From: Nannocystis sp. SCPEA4 | GTDB taxonomy: Bacteria > Myxococcota_A > Polyangia > Nannocystales > Nannocystaceae | Length of the DNA stretch: 64,000 nucleotides | Reading direction: 5' to 3' | Assembly (NCBI RefSeq): GCF_026626685.1 | Contig: NZ_JAPNJX010000001.1 | Location: 204,752 to 268,751, forward strand | Part shown: positions 49,519-50,611 of the stretch, in pieces | Layout: the number at the start of each line of letters is the position of its first letter | Position numbering within the stretch: position 1 is the stretch's first letter | Translations under genes and position numbers: made by a program | The notes under the pieces: generated by a model | Told to the model about the DNA's origin: nothing | The model's database searches: none | What the model saw: only the letters and a program-made list of their open reading frames with translations

Positions 49519-50541
49519 CTACACGCGGACCCGAGCGCGGGGCGGCGGCGCGCCGGGCAGCTGCAGGCAATAGGCGACGAACGCGGCGAACACCGGGCGC
49601 GCGCGCCCCTCGGTCGGCAGCGCGTGCAGGTGCAGCGCAGGCACCACGTTGACCTCGAGCAGCAGCGCCGAGCCCTGCGCCGCTGCGGGCGGCCCCGCGA
49701 ATGCCGCCAGCGGCCCGCGGAGGTCGACCCCGCCGACATCGACCCCCAGCAGATCGCACGCCGACGCCGCGACCGCCAGCCACTCCGGGTGCACCGCGTC
49801 GGTCCGATCGATCACGGCGAGCTCGTCGCCCGTGATCTCGACCTCACGCCCGTCGGGGATCGCCGCCTCGAGGTCGAGTTCGTAGACCTCGAGGTGACCG
49901 GCGAGGTCCTCGTCCGCCTCGATCTGGTCGATCGGACAGAGGCTCGGCGCCGACCACGTCCCGCGCTGCGGGTCGCGGTTCAGCGCCGCCACCTGCGCCG
50001 CCGCGCTGCGCCCCGCCTGCAGCTTCGGCCGCACCACCTCGACGGCCGCCAGCGCCTGCCCTCCGATCACCGCCACCCGCAGGTTGGTCCCGGCGATGAA
50101 CGGCTCGACCAGCACCTCCTCGTCGAGGTCGATCGCGCGGGCCCGATCGCGCGCGCGCGCCAGCGTCGCCAGGTCGCGCACGTCGGTCGCTACCCCGACC
50201 CCGCGGTTGCCCCAGTTGGGCTTGACCACCAGCCGCCCGTGACGCGCCAGCAGGGCCCGCACCGCCGGCCCGGCGATGTCGCCGGCCTCGTCGACCAGCA
50301 CCCCCTCGGCGCACGGCAGCCCGTGCGCGCGCAGCAGCTCGCGGCTCAGGTGCTTGTTGTTGGCCAGGCCCTGCGCCACCTGCGTCAGGAACGGCGAGCG
50401 CGTCTTGCTGACGATCGCCGAGCGCTCGCCGTGCGACAGGCGCATGAAGTAGTCGGTGTGCTCGCGCCCGAGCGGCTCGGCCCGCGCCCCGAGCTCGGCC
50501 GCCGCCGCCGCGATCAGCTGGTTCGTCCTGCTCCAGACCAC
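49519..50541 (-). CDS. ATP-grasp ligase resembling the cyanophycin synthetase N-terminal (G) domain
   Basis: 340 aa, GTG start. NKHLSRELLRAHGLPCAEG, LVVKPNWGNRGVGV, LVEPFIAGTNLRVAVIGG and LLEVNVVPALHLH..PTEGRARPV are present. Confidence 0.7.
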   Translation of the reverse strand: MVWSRTNQLIAAAAAELGARAEPLGREHTDYFMRLSHGERSAIVSKTRSPFLTQVAQGLANNKHLSRELLRAHGLPCAEGVLVDEAGDIAGPAVRALLARHGRLVVKPNWGNRGVGVATDVRDLATLARARDRARAIDLDEEVLVEPFIAGTNLRVAVIGGQALAAVEVVRPKLQAGRSAAAQVAALNRDPQRGTWSAPSLCPIDQIEADEDLAGHLEVYELDLEAAIPDGREVEITGDELAVIDRTDAVHPEWLAVAASACDLLGVDVGGVDLRGPLAAFAGPPAAAQGSALLLEVNVVPALHLHALPTEGRARPVFAAFVAYCLQLPGAPPPRARVRV

Positions 50542-50611
50542 CGGGACATGTCCTCACGGACCTGGCTCACTCGCCATGTCCTTTATGACCTGTCGTGTAC
50601 GACAGCAGCTC
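50528..50611. repeat. 14-bp-phased array, 5-6 units, overlapping two gene ends
   Basis: Cores are CCAG 50533, CATG 50547, CCTG 50561, CATG 50575, CCTG 50589 and CAGC 50603. It covers the ATP-grasp start (50541) and the last ~14 codons of the SpeE-like gene (stop 50567). Confidence 0.8.

Follow-up and report, generated by a model that had tools for sequence, protein, structure and literature searches.

Repetitive extragenic palindromic (REP) elements are defined by a palindrome of 20–40 bp and a GTAG or CGTC end tag, and roles in termination, mRNA stability and supercoiling have been proposed for them (PMC3733652). The subject here is another family of short palindromes, found in Nannocystis sp. 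SCPEA4, and above all an array of four of its 14-bp units that spans the junction between a SpeE-like gene and an ATP-grasp gene. The stretch of DNA analysed, called the window below, comprises 64,000 nucleotides of contig NZ_JAPNJX010000001.1 (positions 204,752 to 268,751). Comparison with related genomes indicates that growth of the array has very probably made the last six residues and the stop of the SpeE-like protein, together with the ribosome-binding region of the ATP-grasp gene.

Like the REP elements and bacterial interspersed mosaic elements (BIMEs) of Enterobacteria and Pseudomonas, the Nannocystis arrays are short, high-copy, clustered palindromes that sit in 3'-end and convergent transcribed spacers, can form stem-loops and are rare in divergent promoters. 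Unlike them, the Nannocystis unit is only 14 bp long, with a 10-bp palindromic core, GGACATGYCC (GGACATGTCC-like), followed by a 4-nt linker, NWWN, and without a GTAG or CGTC tag. Stems can form only between units, and the units are strictly phased head to tail instead of alternating in orientation with variable linkers.

The short tandemly repeated repetitive (STRR) sequences of heterocystous cyanobacteria are intergenic, lineage-specific arrays of tandem heptamers without established function. The Nannocystis arrays are similarly lineage-specific, short in period and intergenic, but they belong to another phylum, have a period of 14 bp (with no CATG peak at 7 or 21) and a palindromic CATG core, and reach into gene ends. 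Rickettsia palindromic elements are reportedly single insertions of about 100–150 bp that lie in frame in protein-coding genes. With these the Nannocystis family shares the property of a dispersed palindromic repeat that is translated into a tolerated peptide, as in the SpeE-like tail and in an array near the N-terminus of a TonB-dependent receptor; its tandem 14-bp units, however, grow and shrink, and mostly alter stops and starts and not internal loops. Finally, translational coupling through an intercistronic hairpin or by termination and reinitiation is known from classical operon and phage examples. The junction resembles such coupled pairs in its two genes on the same strand, its short gap, its predicted ribosome-binding site in the 3' arm of a hairpin and its upstream stop in the loop. 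It differs in that the spacer is built wholly from a genome-wide repeat and in that coupling is here a prediction, with covariation that is not significant.

The literature searched held no description of the family: GGACATGTCC led only to p53 and unrelated eukaryotic papers, and nothing relevant was found on Nannocystis repeats or palindromes or on myxobacterial REPs. The family thus appears to be undescribed in the searchable literature. A scan of the whole window against Rfam 15 at the gathering threshold gave one tRNA (31251–31324) and no match for the arrays.

The array at the SpeE-like/ATP-grasp junction

Written as mRNA, the junction is ...CTG TCG TAC ACG ACA GGT CAT AAA GGA CAT GGC GAG TGA gccaggtccgtgaggacatgtcccg GTG GTC TGG AGC. 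It falls into the blocks CTG TCG TAC, U1 ACGACAGGTCATAA, U2 AGGACATGGCGAGT, U3 GAGCCAGGTCCGTG, U4 AGGACATGTCCC and G GTG GTC TGG AGC (Table 1). Two of the four cores are CATG, and the other two are CCTG on the plus strand (CAGG in mRNA sense), a common variant in the family. Units were scored on their flanks only, the core being excluded, with a matrix trained without the junction array, and the four fall in the top 0.09%, 1.0%, 2.1% and 3.4% of window positions. The in-phase neighbours at 50533 and 50603 do not score as units, so the array is slightly shorter than the 50533–50603 assigned to it in a sequence-only reading of the window. That reading was right that units cover the gap between the SpeE-like stop and the GTG of the ATP-grasp gene, and its gap of 25 bp between stop and start is also what the coordinates of the open reading frames (ORFs) give. 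Four in-phase CMTG cores are found seven times in the window, this array included, and not once in 100 shuffles.

The extent to which the SpeE-like protein is encoded by repeat sequence can be read from its relatives. Among 120 homologues, the motif PGxVITGEGxLLSY, in its wider form PGxV(I/V)TG(E/D)...L(L/I/V)(S/A/T)(Y/F), is conserved across Nannocystaceae, genomes free of the repeat among them; the protein up to Y297 is therefore ancestral. What follows LLSY or LLAY is specific to each lineage. Many Nannocystis lineages known from metagenome-assembled genomes (MAGs) have TTG and one further residue before the stop (SYTTGS at two units), the window's clade has TTG[HPS][KR][GS][HQ][GV][DE], a sister group has GSG[PS]K[GS]QG, and the homologues P0031, P0033, P0035 and P0036 have TTGPSGHVLETLAR and similar tails. 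The tails of other genera are unrelated. The Nannocystis tails read as translated units, in which GHG is GGA CAT GGC, GQG is GGA CAG GGC and GHV is GGA CAT GTC; in a tail that ends in ...GPSGHVLETLAR, the linker stop has been lost and GHV is encoded by GGACATGTC.

In a neighbour-joining tree of SpeE-like proteins without their last 24 residues, the short tails (SYTTG plus one residue) fall in one Nannocystis clade and at the base of the other (P0019), and the long tail is confined to a single crown clade. The window's tail HKGHGE is found neither in the short-tailed Nannocystis lineages nor in any homologue from outside the genus. The comparison of C-termini that had been proposed as a check thus shows a clade-specific tail that follows unit content and is absent from the repeat-free genomes compared. 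Across six Nannocystis genomes, which also supply the identity figures for cores and spacers below, residues 301–306 are 64% identical in amino acids, compared with 93% for residues 1–300. Their codons are 74% identical in nucleotides, compared with 88% at third codon positions. Since the tail changes faster than synonymous sites, it is under no constraint at the protein level, and it is best regarded as an unconstrained by-product of the array.

The proposal that gene ends are written in repeat sequence therefore needs trimming on the SpeE-like side. The unit series of the relatives bears it out for the six tail codons, the stop and the initiation region; LLSY, however, belongs to the ancestral protein, and about 10 codons (Y297–E306) lie in the array instead of the 14 originally counted.

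The start of the ATP-grasp gene is confirmed by the conservation of MVWSRTNQLI and by an ATG at the same position in close relatives. Related loci were collected by tblastn with the ATP-grasp protein as query (26 loci), and the comparison of junctions also drew on others, such as L027, L030 and L050. In 26 of 26 loci the match begins at query residue 1–3. Where the window has GTG GTC TGG, loci L001–L005, L017 and L009 have ATG GTC TGG, and L007 and L008 have an ATG at the same position with a different second codon or none. In the Nannocystis lineages examined, the start precedes WSRTNQLI by 1–8 codons. The next in-frame methionine is residue 33, and similarity to cyanophycin-synthetase models already begins at residue 18–19. 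A start well downstream, which would have spoken against repeat-borne initiation, is thus not what the relatives have.

These results bear on the simplest alternative, in which the overlap of array and genes is coincidental, the SpeE-like tail being ordinary ancestral coding sequence and the ATP-grasp start lying further downstream. It can draw on LLSY and the preceding motif, which are common to repeat-free genomes, and on YTTG, which is conserved in most Nannocystis lineages, those with one or two units included. However, chance would not be expected to give four in-phase units, the tail belongs to one clade and follows the unit content, and the conserved WSRTNQLI has a start codon 1–8 codons upstream of its W in the Nannocystis lineages examined. 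Coincidence can be set aside as extremely improbable.

Unit number and the ends of the two genes

The junctions of the relatives form a series in the number of units, from none to four. Loci L008, L035 and L043 have one unit and read TAT ACG ACA GGT TCG TAG GGCC ATG (...ACGACAGGTTCG TAG GGCC ATG). Two units are found in L006, L009, L031 and L033, and with a CAGG core in L007, L038 and L039, in the form ...GGT TCT/GCC TGA GGACATGTCCCG ATG. These two-unit junctions are exactly 28 bp shorter than that of the window. In L027, also with two units, the linker TGA has become TCG, and the SpeE-like frame continues through the unit GGACATGTC (GHV) until its stop overlaps the ATP-grasp start as GTGA.

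Three units are present in L030, where a TGA is followed by 14 nt and an ATG, and in L047 and L048, where the ATG of the ATP-grasp gene is that of a CATG core (TAG gcc ATG TCG CGC TGG and TGA tcggac ATG TCC TGG). L050 has three units as well; the ATG in its U2 core is the sole start in frame and overlaps the end of speE by 11 nt. The window, L001–L005 and L017 have four units and a gap of 25 nt. The stop is a TAG at the corresponding place in L002–L005 and L017. U4 is also present in lineages with two or three units (L006, L009 and L030). Overall, the distance from stop to start in the relatives runs from −11 to +25 nt.

Judged by this series, the array has very probably gained whole units within Nannocystis, from one or two in basal lineages to three in the crown clade and four in the window's subgroup. 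As copy number and point mutations changed, the SpeE-like stop shifted from linker to linker, always staying in one, and the ATP-grasp start alternated between a place directly behind the final unit and an ATG within a core. The linkers of the arrays often spell TGA, TAG or TAA, the cores hold ATG, and the 5' half of the unit is purine-rich (GAGGA, AAGGAG), so an array holds ready-made stops, starts and sites resembling a Shine–Dalgarno (SD) sequence. At the window's junction, GAGGA lies 9–10 nt from the GTG and would function as the SD site. Of the two possibilities that had been raised for the arrays, that they had overwritten the gene ends is borne out by the comparison of junctions with one, two, three and four units.

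The value of the junction is that it is a base-by-base record of a dispersed repeat making and moving stops, starts and ribosome-binding sites, with all states preserved in living lineages. The unit series thereby shows in concrete terms how protein termini and operon junctions can turn over. For annotation in Nannocystis, a short C-terminal tail or an alternative start close to a CATG array is best treated as repeat-derived.

In L006, the junction between the TonB-dependent receptor and PepSY genes is arranged differently: the end of the receptor gene and a three-unit array (…GGCTGTGAG-CAGG-CATG-CAGG…) are present as a tandem duplicate, repeated every 80 bp or so, which suggests that junctions that bear arrays are prone to larger duplications.

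The repeat family and its possible actions

A scan with a position matrix finds about 27 arrays of 2–6 units in the window. Distances of 14, 28, 42 and 56 bp between CATG motifs occur 36, 27, 17 and 7 times, and other distances about 1–2 times. Allowing up to one mismatch, there are 38 occurrences of GGACATGTCC, compared with 1.8 expected, and cores of CCTG or CAGG are a frequent variant. The linkers are about 50% A+T, compared with 27% for the genome. Units that adjoin a stop codon, starting at −12 to +15 nt from it, are found at 15 of 41 genes, compared with a random mean of 2.0 and a maximum of 7 in 1000 trials, on a rough gene map of our own, called from G+C at third codon positions (GC3) and imprecise at gene starts. 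Arrays occupy five of the six spacers between convergent genes and are weak or absent in divergent promoter regions. The family adjoins about a third of the window's stop codons, and its cores are more conserved than synonymous sites.

Units fill several very short gaps between cistrons. The junction 756/740 reads TGA CCC GAGGGACATGTC ATG, and those at 52026/51985, 29803/29764 and 16301/16257 have a like layout. The sister array between the TonB-receptor and PepSY_TM genes has AAGGAG CATGTCCGT ATG, similar in layout to the SD-like site of the SpeE-like/ATP-grasp junction. Other starts had been placed inside CATG cores as well. For 29764 and 16257 this is accurate, both being the ATG of a core. 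The start at 51985, conserved in the compared relatives, instead lies directly after the last full unit; 51979 does lie in a core, yet it is ACG in some relatives and is therefore not the start.

In this comparison the family is restricted to loci from cultured species of Nannocystis and from one close MAG. Period-14 CATG pairs are present in L001–L006 and L017 alone among the 26 related loci, and were found neither in the Nannocystis MAG loci L007–L009 and L023 nor in those of Enhygromyxa and other Nannocystaceae. L007 and L009 have single or CAGG-type units at the junctions examined.

One way to account for the arrays is that they are functionless, a slippage-prone minisatellite or selfish repeat, and that the junction has changed by neutral drift. 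Copy number does vary between lineages in steps of 14 bp, the SpeE-like tail is unconstrained, units within coding sequence decay from CATG to CAGG, and a junction has been duplicated in L006. The intercistronic cores behave differently. The U4 core is 100% identical in the six genomes and the remaining spacer positions 72%; in the TonB/PepSY spacer the GGRCATG positions are 92% identical and the others 61%. Spacer cores (0.92–1.00) therefore look constrained when set against other spacer positions (0.61–0.72), and they exceed synonymous sites (0.88), with the linkers less conserved. The TonB/PepSY junction does not vary in length between the window and six other genomes, and neither junction array shows indels there, although nearby long intergenic DNA cannot be aligned among the same genomes except for its arrays. 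Neighbouring units resemble each other no more than they resemble those of different arrays, which means that the arrays did not arise by recent duplication. Drift alone is accordingly improbable, and the family is probably functional. Continual homogenisation may instead account for the conservation of the cores.

If the arrays do have a function, it could lie in the DNA. Each core might be the binding site of a dimeric protein that oligomerises along the 14-bp phase, such as a nucleoid protein, a roadblock or a boundary factor, in the manner of gyrase or IHF at BIMEs; the conservation of U4 would then be that of a binding site, with collateral effects on the gene ends. The same core recurs throughout the genome, which an RNA stem alone does not need. 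The units are symmetric and without strand or orientation bias, no sign of pairing between units was found, species differ in linkers but share phase and cores, and five of six convergent spacers hold arrays. Nevertheless, no candidate protein was identified, the motif matches no known bacterial regulator in the literature searched, and the in-frame array of the TonB receptor (54332–54387) is tolerated with degenerate cores. This idea, possible though on the unlikely side, is also compatible with the rewriting of gene ends, which holds either way.

Alternatively, the arrays could act in RNA as REP-like hairpins at 3' ends and between cistrons, halting exonucleases or RNA polymerase and setting the stability of operon segments. 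Here they would mark a boundary of processing or stability between speE and the ATP-grasp gene and would not couple translation. In agreement with this, 11 of 13 tested arrays fold far better than shuffles (z from −2.2 to −5.3), arrays adjoin stop codons, and convergent genes often have one between them, with a weak one or none in divergent promoter regions. Hairpin-plus-T-run terminators are at chance level in 44–64 kb, with none at a gene end. However, folding potential follows automatically from palindromic units, the three-unit arrays at 16245–16300 and 29755–29805 fold no better than shuffles, and the units show neither added complementarity nor wobble asymmetry, nor are even unit numbers preferred. 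An action in RNA of this kind is thus doubtful as well. It and protein binding to the DNA carry similar weight, a dimeric DNA-binding factor fits at least as well, and the conclusion on the gene ends is unaffected by either.

The mechanism proposed for the junction itself, beyond the remodelling of the gene ends, is translational coupling, put forward only tentatively and rather less likely than not. The pair is spaced as coupled genes are, on the same strand with a gap of 25 nt, such pairs overlapping or lying at most a few tens of nucleotides apart. The SpeE-like frame reads through U1 and U2 (...YTTG-HKGHGE) and stops in the U2/U3 linker, and U4 would have been retained as the initiation context, with GAGGA 9 nt upstream of the start. 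In the predicted nested hairpin, the SpeE-like stop would lie in the loop and the SD-like site and ATP-grasp start in the 3' arm, so initiation at the ATP-grasp gene would hinge on ribosomes reaching and finishing at that stop.

The fold of the junction mRNA has a predicted energy of −43.5 kcal/mol over a 106-nt stretch (z = −2.73). A consensus fold is possible in 7 of 7 four-unit orthologues, with 93% of cells paired and the ribosome-binding site occluded in the prediction. In both well-conserved junctions, the last unit ends 1–3 nt before the start and has its purine-rich 5' side 9 nt upstream. Two changes are found in the window only: Tyr297 has gone from TAT to TAC (50599) and the ATP-grasp start from ATG to GTG (50541). 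These bases pair in the hairpin, U-A becoming C-G, and they are among only five differences from N. radixulma in about 90 nt. As a single event, this paired change is suggestive.

Several points weigh against this account, beginning with the imprecise gene map behind the 3'-end statistic. The YTTG codons may be repeat-derived or may only resemble units. Double changes were found in only 2 of 25 pairs across the seven sequences, and 37 of 500 shuffles score at least as high, which is not significant. A pattern scan of metagenomes for further junctions gave 16 matches, six of them true junctions and all of the type with one or two units, so no four-unit sequence could be added to the seven. The SD-like spacing of 9–10 nt is at the long end, other SD sites of the window lying at 6–7 nt. 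Upstream of a start, the array at 26217–26272 has linkers that are rich in pyrimidines when read in sense, which means that resemblance to an SD site is not general to the family. Units of one array are not more complementary to each other than units across arrays (5.28 vs 5.01), departures from the palindrome show no asymmetry of G.U over A.C relative to transcription, and unit counts show no preference for even numbers. The invariance of U4 could equally stem from a DNA-binding factor. Taken as a whole, with coupling included, remodelling of the gene ends by array growth is still probably the best explanation of the junction.

Three other ideas were dropped. Units as general SD cassettes did not hold, as the purine bias of linkers is not consistently tied to gene direction. 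A CRISPR array is ruled out by the 14-bp period and 4-nt linkers, as against repeats of 24–48 bp with unique spacers of similar length. CsrA-type GGA arrays would not fit either, the GGA motifs lying in stems and not in loops in the one junction folded.

In a broader and speculative view, the arrays would be a Nannocystis-specific, genome-wide punctuation, in which a dedicated factor reads GGACATGTCC cores at 14-bp spacing and sets transcription-unit boundaries, polarity or coupling at roughly one in three of the gene 3' ends and spacers between cistrons, with continual remodelling of protein termini through the stop, SD-like and ATG triplets of the units. If it is true that a factor reads the repeat, this would be a new pair of cis-element and factor in a natural-product genus, relevant to operon engineering.

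Gene setting and other features of the window

The window has a G+C content of 72.6%. The two genes of the junction are the last of a minus-strand row of four, which begins with a TonB-dependent receptor and a PepSY_TM protein (Table 1), and the same order is found in several of the Nannocystis contigs that have gene calls. The ATP-grasp gene is 99% identical to that of Nannocystis radixulma and 87–90% identical to those of N. punicea, N. exedens, N. bainbridge, N. pusilla and strain RBIL2; an exact look-up of its protein gave no public record.

The SpeE-like protein is above the Pfam gathering scores for PF01564 (129.7 bits) and PF17284 (36.2 bits). NCBIfam PRK00811 matches residues 4–282 with 233.9 bits, below the 260-bit equivalog cut-off, and "SpeE-like" is therefore the safe name. 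As the NCBIfam SpeE model ends at residue 282, residues 283–306 are a C-terminal extension of 24 amino acids. The ATP-grasp protein matches positions 171–468 of the 871 of NCBIfam PRK14016 (E = 7e-44), far under the full-length cut-off, and Pfam Dala_Dala_lig_C gives 23.4 bits against a cut-off of 24. In L017 (N. pusilla Na p29), the SpeE-like gene is apparently frameshifted upstream of position 6001; extracted in register, it is out of frame at its 5' end, and the NCBI annotation has only a fragment of 185 aa (P0091).

Table 1. Positions of genes, repeat units and predicted elements, numbered from the first letter of the window
Feature	Position	Strand	Basis or remark
TonB-dependent receptor gene	52026–54479	−	ORF and profile matches
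PepSY_TM protein gene	51503–51985	−	ORF and profile matches
SpeE-like gene, 306 aa	50567–51487	−	Pfam PF01564 (E = 1.2e-37) and PF17284
ATP-grasp gene, 340 aa	49519–50541	−	resembles the ATP-grasp part of cyanophycin synthetase
Four-unit array, 14-bp units in register	50543–50598	−	phase and flank-only scores
Unit U4, start-proximal, GGGACATGTCCTCA on the + strand	50543–50556		perfect GGACATGTCC core, which ends two bases before the start codon
Unit, CGGACCTGGCTCAC on the + strand	50557–50570
Unit, TCGCCATGTCCTTT on the + strand	50571–50584
Unit, ATGACCTGTCGTGT on the + strand	50585–50598
SpeE-like TGA stop	50567–50569	−	in the U2/U3 linker; apical loop of the predicted hairpin
ATP-grasp GTG start	50539–50541	−	one base after U4
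GAGGA, Shine–Dalgarno-like	50551–50555	−	U3/U4 linker and 5' part of U4; read from sequence
SpeE-like codons 301–306 (HKGHGE)	50570–50587	−	clade-specific, repeat-encoded tail
SpeE-like codons 297–300 (YTTG)	50588–50599	−	TTG within U1 (GACAGGTC, one mismatch from GACATGTC)
Nested mRNA hairpin, U1:U4 around U2:U3	50545–50594	−	prediction; stop in the loop, SD-like site and start in the 3' arm
Sister array, TonB-receptor/PepSY_TM junction	51973–52041	−	TGA, three units, ATG (51985)
In-frame array, N-terminal region of TonB-receptor ORF	54332–54387	−	peptide …PEDRSDWTFSREPAPKSMPEETG…; cores degenerate (CAGG, CATT, CCTG, CATG)
Three-unit intercistronic array	29758–29799	−	third core gives the ATG at 29764
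Three-unit intercistronic array	16251–16292	−	third core gives the ATG at 16257 of a 122-aa ORF beginning MSQKSDEYEPLADNPFHVLGL

The in-frame array of the TonB receptor is at the same place in L001–L005 and L017. At this site, L006 has a repeat with a period of about 36 nt that contains GGACATGTC and encodes DMS(P/S/A)GT-like peptides. At its other end (52026–52165, minus strand), the receptor continues for about 45 residues (IRGKAGEQARMRWKAGKVNRRVWTAGVRRIERWFWRTWGAML) past ...FYFNLGFAHEW, a usual-looking aromatic barrel end. The Pfam barrel match stops at residue 741 of 817. The extension (…ERWFW(R/K)TWGA(M/F)L) is conserved in the relatives, and its stop lies inside the array.

Two further arrays, at 47556–47611 and 48459–48528, are located upstream of paralogous genes for Cys-rich secreted proteins with antistasin domains, each about 157 nt before the first possible start. 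In other species they keep their position beside a conserved downstream leader, and the remaining 90–310 bp of intergenic DNA cannot be aligned. The two leaders have no evident homology to each other. At 5220–5247, the adjacent units CGGCCATGTCC and GGACATGGCCG are not palindromic themselves; they are exact reverse complements of each other and make a perfect 12-bp stem with a 4-nt loop. This pair is isolated, and the array-wide statistics show no such trend.

The region 31330–35600 begins just past the tRNA and has no ORF with the typical high GC3. It holds tandem repeats of 81 bp (32439–32647) and 54–57 bp (33250–33446), as well as several arrays of the CCTG/CAGG type (33196–33797). Unrelated repeats are found at 5343–5593, with a 45-bp unit in 5.6 copies, and at 49053–49177, where a 27/51-bp repeat lies in the Thr/Ser/Gly-rich linker of an antistasin-domain lipoprotein gene.

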